Source: an uncultured Alphaproteobacteria bacterium
GTDB lineage: Bacteria; Pseudomonadota; Alphaproteobacteria; Rs-D84
Length of the DNA stretch: 64,000 nt
Direction: 5' to 3'
NCBI GenBank assembly: GCA_947053455.1
Contig: CAMRSV010000001.1
Span: forward strand, 36,937 to 100,936
The notes beneath the pieces were generated by a model, which was not told where the DNA came from, made no database searches, and saw only the letters and a program-made list of their open reading frames with translations. The number at the start of each line of letters is the position of its first letter. Positions within the stretch are counted from its first letter, which is position 1. This document shows, piece after piece, positions 13,833 to 20,072 of the stretch. The translations under genes were made by a program, and so were the position numbers.

Positions 13833-14741
13833 ATGAGAAATAGAATAGATAATATATTGCTGGGAATATTATGGGTTCTAGCGGTGACGCTTGGAACCAG
13901 TTTTTGGTTTAACACGCAATTCGGATTCAACATGTTTTCCGACGCCCACTGGCAATATCTGGCCTATCTTCAGGCATCGCAGTCACATGTCCGACCAATG
14001 TTTTATGTGTCACTGGCGGCGGCTATATTTATATTAATATTTGGCCTATATATATTAATGCGCCCGCGGCGCCGTAAAATAAGGCTCGGTCAAAAACCAA
14101 TCGTTGCAGACATGAATAAAAAGCCTGTCAACAACACGCAAACTGATGCATCAACAATAGATATTGTAGCGGCCGAGCCCACCCCAAAGCCCGCCACTGC
14201 ATCACCCGTAATTGATTCAAAACGGCCACCGCGACTAAATTTGCCACCCATAACAAATCGCGCGCCCCAACCGCATCAATCGCAACCGCTGGGCACAACA
14301 ATGTTGCAGCCAAACACAAGCCCGGACGCCAATGCGGCGGAAATAAGAAAAATCTTTGAAGACGCTGGCTACTTAATAAAAAAGAACCCACAAATCGGCA
14401 ACACGCGCCCCAGCCTGTTTGCAATCGGAACAAACGAGGTATTGTGGATTGGCGCATCAAATATTTCCACGACTGATATGCGCCGCGCCATAAACAAACT
14501 GTCGAATATATTTACCGACACACTGGATAACATAGAAATAAATATTAATGGATTTGTAATAAACGCAACCGACGCCGCAACATCAGAATTTCAAGACATA
14601 CTTATGTTTGCTGATGTGAACGCCCTGCGCGACTATATGGCGGGACATCACAATCCCCCGCTGCCACCGGACGACGAAGGTAACTTTGACGCATATTCAG
14701 CATACATCGGAACAGTAATAGATTATATAGGTAAAATGTAA
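13833..14741 (+). CDS. hypothetical membrane-anchored protein with Pro-rich linker (302 aa)
   Basis: N-terminal TM helices, a P/T/Q-rich linker, and a C-terminal globular domain. First gene of a 4-gene + strand operon. Confidence 0.55.
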   Translation: MRNRIDNILLGILWVLAVTLGTSFWFNTQFGFNMFSDAHWQYLAYLQASQSHVRPMFYVSLAAAIFILIFGLYILMRPRRRKIRLGQKPIVADMNKKPVNNTQTDASTIDIVAAEPTPKPATASPVIDSKRPPRLNLPPITNRAPQPHQSQPLGTTMLQPNTSPDANAAEIRKIFEDAGYLIKKNPQIGNTRPSLFAIGTNEVLWIGASNISTTDMRRAINKLSNIFTDTLDNIEININGFVINATDAATSEFQDILMFADVNALRDYMAGHHNPPLPPDDEGNFDAYSAYIGTVIDYIGKM

Positions 14742-14742
14742 A

Positions 14743-15249
14743 ATGCAAATAAACCAGTCCACGGCAGAAAAAAGAATGCGAGAGCTTGGTATGGACGACA
14801 TGCCGTTGATGCAGTTATCCGTAAAGCCGGCTCGCGTTGAGGAAAACTGGTTTGCAAAATATCGGGAAACTGTTCGGAAATTTATGATGTCACTTACCGA
14901 TTCGGTTGAAAGTCTGGCATTTATGAACTTGTCCCAGGATGAATTTATGTCCCTGATTATGGGACGGGCGGTACCAGAAAATTTGTCTGTGCGTATGCGT
15001 GTGCCATTATTTTTGGGCGGCCCCATTGAAATAGACAACATGTTTTTGTGCCGTACGTTCCCACATTCGCATAATCTAGACAGATTTATAATTGAACAAA
15101 ACGGAGCCGCAACACTATGGTTGCCGAACCCATCAAAAAAAATATATCTGCCGGCGCACACCACAGGCGGTGGCGATGGCGGTAACGCAACCGAAGACCG
15201 CCTAGCGCAAATTGCAGCACAAATCGCCGCAGGCCGCGGTATGGAATAA
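14743..15249 (+). CDS. hypothetical protein (168 aa)
   Basis: Start is 2 nt after the previous stop (operon). Contains an FPHSHNLD segment of unknown meaning. Confidence 0.5.
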   Translation: MQINQSTAEKRMRELGMDDMPLMQLSVKPARVEENWFAKYRETVRKFMMSLTDSVESLAFMNLSQDEFMSLIMGRAVPENLSVRMRVPLFLGGPIEIDNMFLCRTFPHSHNLDRFIIEQNGAATLWLPNPSKKIYLPAHTTGGGDGGNATEDRLAQIAAQIAAGRGME

Positions 15250-15258
15250 GGAATCAAA

Positions 15259-15693
15259 ATGACCAATGACGAATTCTTGTCATCTATAAAGTCACGTGGG
15301 GCATCGTTCGCACCTGGGGCGACACAACGCGATATAATATTGGCAACAAACGCGCTAATGGCAATGCAGGCCGCCAGACTGCCGCAATATATGTCAGAAA
15401 TATATACAAATGCCGGCGGAATAAATCTTGGGTCAGGATATATTTTCGGCCCAACCGAATGGAAAACTAACCGTAAAGTGCCCGTACCGTCAATCGTAAA
15501 CATAAATAATGAAATCGCAAAAATTCAGTCGATGCATGGAAAAACCGTATTTGGTCGTAATGATTTATTCTGGTTTGTATTTGACACGTTCGGCACGTGC
15601 TATATGCTGGATAACGTGGCATTGCGCGAATTACGCAAATACGACAATCCATACAAGGCTATGACCGATTGCCTGGTTGCGGGGAAATTTTAA
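15259..15693 (+). CDS. hypothetical protein (144 aa)
   Basis: Third operon member. No recognised family. Confidence 0.5.
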   Translation: MTNDEFLSSIKSRGASFAPGATQRDIILATNALMAMQAARLPQYMSEIYTNAGGINLGSGYIFGPTEWKTNRKVPVPSIVNINNEIAKIQSMHGKTVFGRNDLFWFVFDTFGTCYMLDNVALRELRKYDNPYKAMTDCLVAGKF

Positions 15694-15695
15694 AG

Positions 15696-15896
15696 ATGAA
15701 AAAAATATCGGTTTCATTGTCCGGGCATCAAACCAGCATTTCGCTGGAACCCGAATTCATAGATACATTGCATGAAATTGCAGGCGCCCAAAATCGACCA
15801 GTTGGCGCAATAATAAATGAAATTGATAAAACACGTGGGCGAACAAACCTGTCGTCCGCTGTGCGTGTATGGATTTTGAAAAACAAACATTCCTGA
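15696..15896 (+). CDS. ribbon-helix-helix (RHH_4-type) DNA-binding protein
   Basis: MKKISVSLSGHQTSISLEPEFIDTLHEIAGAQNRPVGAIINEID..NLSSAVRVWIL matches the conserved alphaproteobacterial RHH family pattern. Confidence 0.7.
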   Translation: MKKISVSLSGHQTSISLEPEFIDTLHEIAGAQNRPVGAIINEIDKTRGRTNLSSAVRVWILKNKHS

Positions 15897-15937: not shown

Positions 15938-17941
15938 TTAATCAGATTTTGCGCGTGCCCCACAAATCGCACCAATACAGGAAACAATCAAAATAATTAT
16001 CATCCATGCATTTCTCCCAACCACCCGATATGGGGTCAAATGCGCCGTGCCGACATTTCCGTCAAGCACCCCTGGGGAACCGACCGGCAAATATGACACC
16101 ACCCGACCCGCCGCATCAACAAATGCACTTATTCCAGAATAATTCGCCCGAACAATCGGCGTGCCCGATTCAATCGCATAACGACGAACCATATCCAAAT
16201 GCTGATAAACGCCGGGCGTGTTGCCGAACCATGTATCATTTGTTATGTTTACAATCGCATCGGGCATCGCACCACGTGGTATCAGGGAATCAGAAAAAAT
16301 GATTTCATAACAAATTGCGGGCGCAAATGTAAATTCGCCACCATTGGTCTTGATAGAAATTATTTCTGGGCCTTTGCCGCGGTTTAAATCCGCGGGCGAC
16401 GGCATGATTCCGCCCAATGGTGAATATTCGCCGAACGGCACCAGGTGCGATTTGTTGTATATTTTTTGAACCATGCCATCCGCATCAGCCACAATCATTG
16501 AATTATAAAGTTTCGAATCCAAAAATGCAGTCGCCCCCAATACGACGGGACGTTTCAAGGCACGCGACATCGGCATGTCATTATCAACTACGACAAATGG
16601 GTATGTCGTTTCTGGAAAAATTATAATATCCGGATTCCCACCCGCGGCGGCCAAATCAATTAATTTCACAACGCCCCGCTCTGCACTGGCGATGCGTTCG
16701 GCACGAGATGCGCCATACGATATCTTCTCGGACTGGGCGCGTGCCGGTTGAACAATACGAATTGTTACTGATGATGGAACATTATCAAAGTTTGACTTTC
16801 GAATATTTTCATATCCAAAAATGGCGCCACCAATCAATGCAGCAACAAAAAAAATCGCGGAAATCATGCACATACGACATTTTCTATTACCTATAAAATC
16901 AACCGCCGCCGCAATCAGACCGACAATTATAAACGTAAGTCCCAATGCACCCCACAACGACATTGAATTTGCAATCACAGGATATGGCATTGCAATGTTT
17001 GCGACCGGATTCCATGGGAACCCTGTTAGCACCCATTCGCGCATCCACAACACCAATGTCCAAGAACCTGCGAAAACAAATGCCCGAGATGCAACCGACG
17101 CAAAATGCGCAGCCATAACAAATGGAATTGCAAACACAACCGCCCCGGCCAACCCCATGGCCAGCAACGCCGGAACGGTCCAGACTGCAAATTCTGCGGT
17201 CAATTCTGGAACAACATAAATTGAATTTAATGCCCACCAAAACATTGCAATGGCATATCCTGCGCCAAAAGGTGCCACCCGTAAAAACGAGAGCCATATT
17301 GTTTTGCGTGTTTTCCGCATCAATATCCAATACGCGAATCCAATCCCAACAATCGTTGCAGGCCATATATAAAATGGTGCAAAACCAAGTGCGGAAACAA
17401 CGCCGCAAAAAAACGGCGCAATTATATTTAACAGCCACTTTGCACGCCGCGACACCTTGCCGGACGCAGTAACAGTAACGTCATCCATATATGGATTTTT
17501 TAACCCTAATTTTTCCATTATTTTTATTTCGAATGATTCCATAATTTCTGCATCATCATCTTTGATATGATCATACCCCTGCAGGTGCAGCATCCCATGA
17601 ACCACCATGTGTGCAGTATGTTCGGCAACGGAAATTTTTGCGGCCGCCGCCTCGCGACGAACAGTATCAATAGATATATATATATCACCCATCAACACTG
17701 GGTCACCCAGTTCAAAAGACAAAACATTAGTCGGCCGGTCAATTCCGCGATAACTTTGATTCAATTCATGAATTTCTTTGTCATTTGTCAGAATAATCGA
17801 AACTTCAGAATCTTTGTATGCAGCGCCCACCGCCATGCAGGCGATTTTTTCAAAATCTATTTTATACTTTTTCCAACGATTATCGTTATAATTAACCCAA
17901 ACCTTCATTATTTGCCCCCAACGATTATGCGGTGTAATCAC
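15938..17941 (-). CDS. YbeY endoribonuclease (N-terminal ~150 aa, HGxLHLxGYDH) fused in-frame to apolipoprotein N-acyltransferase Lnt (C-terminal ~515 aa, CN-hydrolase)
   Basis: A single 667-aa ORF. The YbeY motif HGMLHLQGYDH is followed, without a stop, by MDDVTVTAS... (internal ATG at 17488), Lnt TM helices, and the catalytic CYEIIF region. Confidence 0.7.
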   Translation of the reverse strand: MITPHNRWGQIMKVWVNYNDNRWKKYKIDFEKIACMAVGAAYKDSEVSIILTNDKEIHELNQSYRGIDRPTNVLSFELGDPVLMGDIYISIDTVRREAAAAKISVAEHTAHMVVHGMLHLQGYDHIKDDDAEIMESFEIKIMEKLGLKNPYMDDVTVTASGKVSRRAKWLLNIIAPFFCGVVSALGFAPFYIWPATIVGIGFAYWILMRKTRKTIWLSFLRVAPFGAGYAIAMFWWALNSIYVVPELTAEFAVWTVPALLAMGLAGAVVFAIPFVMAAHFASVASRAFVFAGSWTLVLWMREWVLTGFPWNPVANIAMPYPVIANSMSLWGALGLTFIIVGLIAAAVDFIGNRKCRMCMISAIFFVAALIGGAIFGYENIRKSNFDNVPSSVTIRIVQPARAQSEKISYGASRAERIASAERGVVKLIDLAAAGGNPDIIIFPETTYPFVVVDNDMPMSRALKRPVVLGATAFLDSKLYNSMIVADADGMVQKIYNKSHLVPFGEYSPLGGIMPSPADLNRGKGPEIISIKTNGGEFTFAPAICYEIIFSDSLIPRGAMPDAIVNITNDTWFGNTPGVYQHLDMVRRYAIESGTPIVRANYSGISAFVDAAGRVVSYLPVGSPGVLDGNVGTAHLTPYRVVGRNAWMIIILIVSCIGAICGARAKSD

Positions 17942-19694
17942 CGTGCATAAAATTCACAACAGCCGCATTTTTAATTGTGTCGTCATTATGCAGTTTTTTC
18001 AATCCGGAATTAAACCCCAGCCGCTTGCCACGTGTTGTCATTTCTTTTGCGGCCTTGATGTACATTTGCAATTTTTCAATGTCGTTAACATCACCATTTT
18101 CGTAATTATAAACTGCGTTTTCAAAATTTTTAGCAGCCTTGCGATAATTCTCGCGTGCTTTGTCCGGCATTTTACGCGACATATATATGTCACCCATCGC
18201 ACGACGCGCACATCCGGCGGTATAGTAAGATTCTGCCTTGACATCACGGTCCATCAACAGGCTTTTGTTCGCGTTCATTCGACTATTACATTTTACAACA
18301 ACATTTACCGCGTTTTGAAAACATTCAATATCATTGTTTTGTTCGCCCAATTTATTATACGCATCGGCAAGTTCACTATATGCCCCCATATTATCCGCAT
18401 CTATATTAATCGCCTGTTGAAACAGCTCTATTGCCCCTTTGAAATCCATTGATACAATCTTGGCGTTTCCCTGATTAAGAAGTGACATGGATTCTTCAAT
18501 ATTTTTTGCGAGCAAGTTATCTTTTATCGCTGTATGTGCAACAATTCCGCGATTTTTTACCACATCAAGTATTTTTAGTCCGGCATCAAACCCGGATAAA
18601 AATTTTTCAACAGTACCGTTAACGCTGGGGCGCGTCATCACATATTTTACGGTTTGCTCCCCCAAAAGGAAATGCCCGTTTCTATAAATATTATTTATAT
18701 CAACACTGGAAAACGCATCACGACGCATTTTCAACAAATCATTCGCCGTTATAATGCCGGCGGCATACGCCGCACATACCCAACGACGCTTTAACGTACC
18801 GTCGCGCCACCTAGATGGAATTTTACCCGCAGTAAACGCATCTGCAACTTCCTGAACTGTTTTAGCACTATCTAAACGCGCGGCAATGTGCACCATATCG
18901 GATGGTCGCTGATACCCGGCCAGCAACATCGCAATCGCATGCCGGTCCGTAATATTTTTACGATTCTTTACCGCCCTCACCAATGCAGGCATTGTGTCAA
19001 ATTCAAGATGACGGCGCACCTGCTCATAATTTTCATCCTTGTCACGAACGATTGTATCGTTATCACTCGGCGTTTGCTGCAATTTGCCGTTATTGTCATA
19101 AGAATATATCCACGTTGTCCCCAGCCCATAAGTATACCTAGATTCGCCGGCATATTTACGCGGTGTCGCACGATATGTTTCTAACTCGGTCAGTCCGACC
19201 GCAATATCAACCCAATAGGCATCTAACGACAAAACTGCACTATCAATAATTTCTTTGTCGGTGTCAGTATCATTAACAATTTCAATTTTTGCGATATTTG
19301 AATCATCACGGGCATCATCCATTAATCTGTTAGCCCCAATAACAATTCCAGACAACATCATGTAGTACGTAAGGTAAGACAATATCCACGGATTCTTTTG
19401 CATAAAATCAGAAAATTTGTCATCTGCGCGCTGTGCCTTGATTTCCGGCGTAAAGAGAGATTTATACCCATGTTCCATTGCGCGCAGCAATACATTGTTA
19501 ACAATTGCAATATCAAACGTTTTTACCATATATGAAAACAGAGACAGCAGAAAGTATCCACCAACCTTTGCGGTTTGCCCCAGTTTTGATTCTGGATATG
19601 TCTGAAGCAATTGTCGACGGATGTTATCAATTTTTCCCGCCGCCCAATCCGGACCACGCCCGATTTTTTCTGCAACTGTTTTTTTATTTGCCAT
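17925..19694 (-). CDS. TPR repeat-containing protein (589 aa)
   Basis: C-terminal third shows TPR-like repeats (AIELFQQAINIDADNMGAYSELADAYNKLGE...). The N-terminal part has no recognised family. Confidence 0.6.
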   Translation of the reverse strand: MANKKTVAEKIGRGPDWAAGKIDNIRRQLLQTYPESKLGQTAKVGGYFLLSLFSYMVKTFDIAIVNNVLLRAMEHGYKSLFTPEIKAQRADDKFSDFMQKNPWILSYLTYYMMLSGIVIGANRLMDDARDDSNIAKIEIVNDTDTDKEIIDSAVLSLDAYWVDIAVGLTELETYRATPRKYAGESRYTYGLGTTWIYSYDNNGKLQQTPSDNDTIVRDKDENYEQVRRHLEFDTMPALVRAVKNRKNITDRHAIAMLLAGYQRPSDMVHIAARLDSAKTVQEVADAFTAGKIPSRWRDGTLKRRWVCAAYAAGIITANDLLKMRRDAFSSVDINNIYRNGHFLLGEQTVKYVMTRPSVNGTVEKFLSGFDAGLKILDVVKNRGIVAHTAIKDNLLAKNIEESMSLLNQGNAKIVSMDFKGAIELFQQAINIDADNMGAYSELADAYNKLGEQNNDIECFQNAVNVVVKCNSRMNANKSLLMDRDVKAESYYTAGCARRAMGDIYMSRKMPDKARENYRKAAKNFENAVYNYENGDVNDIEKLQMYIKAAKEMTTRGKRLGFNSGLKKLHNDDTIKNAAVVNFMHGDYTA

Positions 19695-20072
19695 GTTTTA
19701 CATCCCTGCCGTTTTTGCCCAAGCCGGCCTTTTTTGCAATTGTCGAACGCCGGGCGGCATATGCAGGTGCGACAAATGGATAATTATCCGGCAGCCCCCA
19801 TTTTGCACGATACTGATCCGGCGACATACCAAATTTTCGCCGAATATAGCGCCGCAACATTATATGCCACGTGCCATCTTCTAAACATTGAATCTTATCA
19901 GAACGCACACTGTCTGCAATCTGTTTTGGCGTGGCACTAGCGCCACGCAAACTATCGCGGGCGGCGCGAACCGCTTCGTCCATAGATAGGGATGGGTTTG
20001 CCGCAATTGCCGCCGCCGCCAGATTCGCCACAGCCAGCGCAAATTCAGAATTTTTATCAGTATTTACCAATT
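19684..20072 (-). CDS. mucR: MucR/Ros family transcriptional regulator
   Basis: C-terminus ..MLRRYIRRKFGMSPDQYRAKWGLPDNYPFVAPAYAARRSTIAKKAGLG matches the Ros/MucR domain. The start is uncertain: the track ORF extends to 20220 but its N-terminus looks non-coding. Confidence 0.65.

Follow-up and report, generated by a model that had tools for sequence, protein, structure and literature searches.

YbeY is a zinc-dependent endoribonuclease that matures the 3′ end of 16S rRNA and takes part in ribosome quality control; it is among the most widely conserved bacterial proteins, and its mode and place of action in the cell are still debated. Lnt, the apolipoprotein N-acyltransferase, uses a periplasmic nitrilase-like domain to add the third acyl chain to lipoproteins. 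We know of no link between Lnt and ribosomes and, to our knowledge, the linkage of ybeY to genes for membrane proteins is unexplained. In the classical ybeZ (phoH)-ybeY-ybeX (corC)-lnt operon of E. coli and other Proteobacteria, the two enzymes are separate polypeptides and corC lies between their genes (bioRxiv 10.1101/2023.03.20.533420). Here we describe ybeY::lnt, a gene in a 64,000-nucleotide stretch (hereafter the window) of contig CAMRSV010000001.1 from an uncultured alphaproteobacterium, in which the same two enzymes, in the same order and with the same catalytic residues, are instead encoded by one open reading frame (ORF). The locus has neither corC nor phoH, and no homologue of either was found by tblastn anywhere in the window, in agreement with an initial annotation of this DNA, which had noticed that corC was missing from the usual ybeY-corC-lnt order. 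The fusion is genuine and has been conserved in the evolution of a clade of uncultured Alphaproteobacteria from gut and rumen; in almost all bacteria the two genes stand apart.

The closest described architectures are two other natural fusions. YbeY-Era proteins occur in Clostridia, some Selenomonadales and Thermoleophilum album, and have been taken as ‘Rosetta stone’ evidence of a partnership (PMC10582724). There, as here, YbeY is the N-terminal module of a natural protein that joins two enzymes, but its partner in YbeY-Era is a soluble ribosome-assembly GTPase and a known physical partner of YbeY, whereas here the partner matures lipoproteins and is integral to the membrane. Mycobacterial Ppm1 (Rv2051c / BCG_2070c) combines a functional Lnt, which has an E-K-C triad, with a polyprenol-monophosphomannose synthase (PMC3850990). 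Like the protein described here, it is a natural two-domain protein containing Lnt; however, its extra domain is C-terminal and serves envelope glycolipid synthesis, while the extra domain of the present protein is N-terminal, cytoplasmic and an RNase. Full-text literature searches pairing YbeY with Lnt, fusion and domain architecture recovered no description of a YbeY-Lnt protein, and YbeY-Era was the only natural YbeY fusion found described in the literature searched. YbeY-Lnt appears to be an undescribed domain architecture of two known enzymes, with sequences already present in databases, where public records label the fused proteins only ‘apolipoprotein N-acyltransferase’. Because of this label, YbeY seems to be missing from these genomes in surveys of gene content and completeness.

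Direct reading of the sequence recovered the single minus-strand ORF exactly as first described, running without interruption from GTG 17941 to the TAA codon at 15938-15940, with a maximal length of 667 aa. That extent stands, but the start and length assigned to the protein probably do not: translation probably begins at ATG 17908, for a product of 656 aa, because GTG 17941 sits inside the 3′ end of the upstream gene (stop codon 17925-17927), a GGGGG run resembling a Shine-Dalgarno sequence precedes the ATG, and the homologues all begin at the position matching ATG 17908. The predicted anti-Shine-Dalgarno duplex at this ATG has an energy of -8.4 kcal/mol, versus a median of -6.2 kcal/mol over the 21 genes called in the locus. 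Residues are numbered below on the 656-aa product, except that Pfam ranges refer to the 667-aa ORF, on which YbeY spans aa 39-145 (E 5e-34), LNT_N aa 180-341 and CN_hydrolase aa 431-634. The presence of YbeY and a full Lnt in one ORF, also claimed at the outset, was confirmed with Pfam and with both NCBIfam equivalog models, which score above their curated cutoffs. The YbeY equivalog TIGR00043 reaches 128.2 bits (cutoff 45), with a match that runs from position 5 to position 145 of the 146 in the profile, and PF02130 (YbeY) reaches 117 bits (cutoff 25). The lnt equivalog TIGR00546 reaches 228.9 bits (cutoff 132.9), and the LNT_N and CN_hydrolase matches each exceed the respective gathering score.

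The YbeY part carries the HGMLHLQGYDH metal-binding motif picked out in the initial annotation, with the three histidines in H3xH5xH spacing. Residues R54, D75, H104, H108 and H114 correspond to R59, D85, H114, H118 and H124 of E. coli YbeY and are invariant in 21/21 fused proteins (alignment A1, to which E. coli YbeY and Lnt were added for residue mapping). Alignment with the structures 1XM5 and 1XAX extends up to their natural C-termini, and the KNPY sequence that ends the fused YbeY falls where free YbeY proteins stop (E. coli YbeY ends …EDPYIAEKE). An AlphaFold2 (AF2) model of the domain, with a predicted local distance difference test score (pLDDT) of about 85, has the YbeY fold, matching 1XM5 in Foldseek with a target-normalised template modelling (TM) score of 0.82-0.84 and a root-mean-square deviation of 2.4-2.5 Å. 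The YbeY moiety is therefore best described as a full domain with an intact catalytic set, and is predicted from its sequence to have RNase and 16S maturation activity.

The Lnt part is similarly complete. The AF2 model predicts eight transmembrane helices (154-175, 182-197, 204-230, 234-267, 272-294, 316-340, 345-372 and 632-655), with the nitrilase-like domain placed between the seventh and the eighth, and its whole fold matches E. coli Lnt with a target-normalised TM score of 0.73-0.78 (Foldseek); among the Foldseek matches of the model, no solved chain spans both YbeY and Lnt. The catalytic triad E433/K486/C533 is equivalent to E. coli E267/K335/C387 and is invariant in 21/21 fused proteins, as are E494, Y534 and E535 (E. 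coli E343, Y388 and E389). With this intact triad, the Lnt moiety is predicted to N-acylate apolipoproteins.

An identical 656-aa sequence was recovered from independent samples by independent assemblers, on at least four contigs (ENA ERZ13632114 and Logan SRR13573577 among them), and the 90%-identity cluster to which it belongs contains eight full-length variants of 656 aa, spread over about 22 contigs. Among the matches listed from a search of 5.8 billion proteins, 120/120 carry PF02130, PF20154 and PF00795 together; these homologues range from 99% down to 56% identity and from 641 to 680 aa, with 95-98% coverage. Both domains also lie within one ORF in seven GTDB species genomes (L001-L007), which comprise rumen, caecum and gut metagenome-assembled genomes (MAGs) named ‘Alphaproteobacteria bacterium’, a ‘Candidatus Enterousia sp.’ and a ‘Rickettsiales bacterium’. 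An exhaustive HMMER scan covered 1.84 billion representatives at 50% identity; of its best 150 hits, 13 contain both domains (8 full-length, 5 fragments), and the others are Lnt-only and mostly about 500 aa long, apart from two truncated YbeY-only sequences. The reading frame is thus uninterrupted in independent assemblies and in related species, and the in-frame fusion through stop loss that had been proposed for this locus is borne out. The other possibility then raised, a sequencing error at the junction, is refuted. An artefact of sequencing or assembly, by which a stop was lost or a frameshift introduced between two separate genes, has in its favour nothing beyond the rarity of the architecture (about 13 of the 1.84 billion representatives), and the independent recoveries, the variants within one cluster, the uniformly fused homologues and strong purifying selection on both sides of the junction leave it a negligible chance.

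The segments of the fusion are not equally conserved. Mean pairwise identity is 73% for YbeY, 63% for the CN-hydrolase domain, 56% for the Lnt membrane domain (helices 1-7) and 28% for the linker. Compared with P0002, the gene of the nearest other species (82% amino acid identity; locus L087), Nei-Gojobori ratios of nonsynonymous to synonymous substitution (dN/dS) are 0.055 for YbeY, 0.15 for the Lnt membrane domain, 0.13 for the CN-hydrolase domain and 0.44 for the linker (15 codons); all are approximate, because dS is 0.7-1.1 and near saturation. As the best-conserved segment, with a dN/dS of 0.055, the YbeY part is not a remnant in decay. Across the clade, many insertions and deletions in the linker have left the reading frame intact.

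Between the two enzymes, the linker has pLDDT values <50 at residues 142-152 in the AF2 model, while the flanking modules are confident (mean pLDDT 80). It is short and variable, and is predicted to be disordered. A basic RRAK stretch comes after the linker MDDVTVTASGKVS, immediately ahead of the first transmembrane helix. Measured in 109 homologues, the linker together with the start of that helix, from NPY to the GFAPF motif, is 22-61 aa long.

Taken at face value, the gene most likely encodes one 656-aa inner-membrane protein starting at ATG 17908, a reading that we hold with good, though not full, confidence. Such a protein would consist of a 140-residue N-terminal YbeY, a disordered linker of ~13 residues and then transmembrane helix 1 of a complete Lnt. 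Since E. coli Lnt has eight transmembrane helices with its N- and C-terminus both cytoplasmic (PMC5500888), YbeY would lie on the cytoplasmic face of the membrane and still be able to reach ribosomes. Both enzymes would stay active, with YbeY anchored to the membrane at a fixed 1:1 stoichiometry to Lnt and acting on small-subunit rRNA from the membrane surface.

Several points weigh against this reading. The full-length polypeptide is a prediction from the sequence and may be cleaved within its disordered linker; the junction of the two domains coincides, in this genome, with an in-frame ATG; and a second, free ybeY or lnt may be encoded elsewhere in the genome, as the search, which found neither, covered the 64-kb window only. 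The stepwise route to the fusion set out below rests on analogy, since no lineage with abutting ybeY and lnt (L008, L009 or L014) is sister to the fused clade. Finally, E. coli Lnt W237, reported as essential, is replaced by I396 here, in a column that is I, M or A across the clade. We do not take this mismatch to exclude membership in the Lnt family, because the residue is not universal: functional mycobacterial Lnts keep only 5 of the 7 ‘essential’ residues (PMC3850990).

The junction ATG and the disorder of the linker would suit a fusion that exists at the gene level only, with two proteins arising through internal initiation at ATG 17488 (Met141) or through linker proteolysis, and with YbeY soluble. 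The relaxed constraint on the linker fits this as well, and some other genes of the locus likewise have weak Shine-Dalgarno sequences. Yet among 109 full-length fused homologues the residue after NPY is Met in just 2, against Ala in 73 and Glu in 20, the linker lacks any Met in 85, and the nearest other species has Ala at the position of Met141. The Shine-Dalgarno duplex of the internal ATG is weak (-3.4 kcal/mol, versus -8.4 kcal/mol at ATG 17908) and badly spaced, its G-run lying >15 nt upstream. Internal initiation, moreover, could free only Lnt and never YbeY, whose coding part has no stop codon of its own, and the retention of frame through many linker indels would be needless if the parts were made independently. 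The ATG that the initial annotation had proposed as a separate Lnt start is therefore real and in frame (17486-17488), but finds little backing in that role; its use is unlikely, and we give the two-protein account as a whole only a small chance. Smaller still, to the point of being very improbable, is the prospect that the ribosomal work falls to a free YbeY encoded elsewhere, the fused one being either a relic without catalytic activity or a domain repurposed to regulate Lnt from the cytoplasm. The limited extent of the search for another ybeY leaves room for it, and the sister clade is mixed and includes free lnt genes (two were checked, and neither has ybeY upstream), so separation is viable. 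Against it stand the conservation of the YbeY segment, the highest in the protein, and the invariance of its three metal-binding histidines and of R54 and D75. In addition, two close relatives that had looked like candidates for a free, YbeY-only protein (P0145 and P0146) were rejected as such, being truncated or frameshifted fusion fragments that end inside the linker.

If a single membrane protein is indeed made, it should be viewed not as a new kind of system but as an unexpected and conserved anchoring, predicted from the gene, of a universal ribosome-maturation RNase to the membrane. Purifying selection on the fusion throughout the clade would mean that YbeY can work within about 13 residues of the membrane surface and, if the fused copy is the sole ybeY, that it must work from there. 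With this fusion, the question of whether the small subunit can mature at the membrane can be put to a natural example. The fusion may have no selective effect, having been tolerated as a by-product when small genomes lost corC; another possibility is that YbeY has a genuine functional connection to the envelope, which the fusion reflects. In the most far-reaching form of the latter, which we regard as speculative and rather unlikely, the fusion would be a ‘Rosetta stone’: YbeY would normally work at the cytoplasmic face of the inner membrane, associated physically or functionally with Lnt and perhaps with CorC. If true, this would couple late 30S maturation or ribosome quality control spatially to envelope and lipoprotein biogenesis, and would explain the persistent clustering of ybeY with corC and lnt in Proteobacteria, a coupling that would have turned covalent in this clade.

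Loci from other Alphaproteobacteria bear on the origin of the fusion. Nearly all others retrieved have a corC/tlyC gene of ~0.85-1.1 kb between ybeY and lnt, and phoH upstream. Three loci of a gut lineage (L008, L009 and L014) have kept phoH-ybeY and lost corC, so that ybeY abuts lnt; in two of them (L008:6262-6471 and L009:6406-6735) the ybeY stop, TAA or TAG, lies 1-3 codons before the lnt ATG in the same frame, a state that would be a single point mutation away from a fusion. By analogy, the ancestral alphaproteobacterial ybeY-corC-lnt cluster would have lost corC, this loss would have put the ybeY stop beside the lnt start, and the stop would then have been lost in frame. The three loci were considered as direct ancestors and rejected, because a bootstrapped neighbour-joining tree built on the Lnt domain places them in a group with L047 and L056, which retain corC (94% bootstrap), and apart from the fused clade. 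Like the fused locus they bring ybeY up against lnt, but they keep the stop and the upstream phoH and belong to a different Lnt clade, and they are therefore an analogue rather than an ancestor. A recoded stop or an alternative genetic code was also considered and rejected, as the junction in the window has no stop codon at all and the in-frame stops of L008 and L009 are ordinary TAA and TAG, each before an lnt ATG.

In the same tree, a core fused clade including the window protein is recovered with 99% bootstrap and is sister (99%) to a mixed group, made up of the fused L006 and P0125 and the Lnt-only P0134, P0135, P0138, P0140 and P0143. The two Lnt-only contigs examined (P0134 and P0138) have lnt without ybeY upstream. 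Further fused sequences (L007, P0127 and P0131) join at 89-95%, and a wider superclade with fused members has 89-99% support, while P0136, though fused, falls among ordinary Alphaproteobacteria. This pattern is most simply read as a single old fusion, undone later by fission in one sublineage, together with at least one independent fusion, although a neighbour-joining tree of a single protein cannot settle this.

Most fused homologues (P0005-P0120) have a longer linker, with a median of 47 aa from NPY to the GFAPF motif; in the window protein and those nearest to it, the linker is short and contains 0-1 Cys. The longer linkers contain a conserved Cys motif, C-x5-(C)CPG, which the window lacks at 17450-17488; of its positions in alignment A2, C153 never varies, and conservation reaches ≥90% at each of C147, P154 and G155. 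A short amphipathic helix follows the motif (…TISFLKKIKIRENGFWQY…). Some homologues (P0064, P0067 and P0094) have 9-11 Cys, in CxC repeats with a metallothionein-like look. The Cys part of the longer linkers is unstructured in AF2 (pLDDT <50), and may form a metal site beside a zinc enzyme. A likeness between FLKKxKIRENG of the linker and FFKKKEGE of CorC suggested that the longer linker is a vestige of the CorC N-terminus. This was not supported: a linker hidden Markov model (HMM) searched against 8,334 ORF segments of 80 loci matched fused proteins only, and no CorC.

The coordinates of the gene, its parts and its neighbours are collected in Table 1. The typical neighbourhood of the fused clade has rarA upstream on the opposite strand, followed by mucR, a variably present tetratricopeptide repeat (TPR) gene and ybeY::lnt on one strand, and synteny around the fused gene is kept in L001-L005. 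The TPR gene may be co-transcribed with the fusion, because its stop lies only 16 nt before ATG 17908. L001, L002 and L005 have the TPR gene; L003 and L004 do not, and there the gene immediately before the fusion is mucR or rarA; the position of mucR upstream of the fusion is kept in L001-L003 and L005. Downstream of the fusion, the block of convergent genes is syntenic in L001-L005 at 34-68% identity, and the 144-aa gene within it ends inside the RHH_4 ORF when the latter is taken to start at TTG (15669-15896). A scan for promoters and terminators gave signals at background level only, and no Rfam family reached its gathering score in the window, which has no tRNA, rRNA or riboswitch.

Table 1. 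Features of the ybeY::lnt gene and its neighbours (window coordinates; aa, residues of the 656-aa product; TM, transmembrane; CDS, coding sequence).
Feature	Position	Strand	Details
ybeY::lnt fusion CDS	15938..17908	-	656 aa plus TAA stop 15938-15940; maximal ORF reaches GTG 17941
Shine-Dalgarno-like run GGGGG	17915..17919	-	7-11 nt upstream of ATG 17908
YbeY endoribonuclease domain	17489..17908	-	aa 1-140; ends at invariant KNPY (aa 137-140)
Metal-binding triad H104/H108/H114	17567-17599	-	motif HGMLHLQGYDH; read from sequence
Linker	17450..17488	-	aa 141-153 (MDDVTVTASGKVS); starts with in-frame ATG 17486-17488; AF2 and alignment
Predicted junction-spanning tryptic peptide of the fusion			NPYMDDVTVTASGK
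Lnt membrane domain, predicted TM helices 1-7	16793..17449	-	aa 154-372; PF20154 LNT_N, AF2
Lnt periplasmic CN-hydrolase (nitrilase-like) domain	16016..16792	-	aa 373-631; PF00795, TIGR00546
Lnt catalytic triad	E433 16610-16612; K486 16451-16453; C533 16310-16312	-	alignment to E. coli
Lnt TM helix 8 and cytoplasmic C-terminus	15941..16015	-	aa 632-656; AF2 helix 632-655
TPR-repeat protein gene	17925..19694	-	589 aa; stop 16 nt before ATG 17908
mucR/ros-family regulator gene	19684..20070	-	PF05443 E 3e-25; overlaps TPR gene start by 11 nt
Three convergent genes, then small RHH_4 gene	13833-15896	+	302, 168 and 144 aa; the three genes have no Pfam family above threshold

In the ‘Candidatus Enterousia sp.’ MAG, an ORF of ~97 aa (L005:8014-8304) directly follows the fused gene and matches positions 124-200 of the HMM of the Lnt transmembrane region (E 2.7e-33); a partial tandem duplication or an error of assembly may account for it. 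On the contigs of P0134 and P0138, the closest Lnt-only relatives, type II CRISPR-Cas9 and Cas1 genes lie near lnt (L083:5195-7080 and L085:2623-5793), and in L083 the gene immediately upstream of lnt encodes not YbeY but a secreted, Cys-rich protein of 174 aa.

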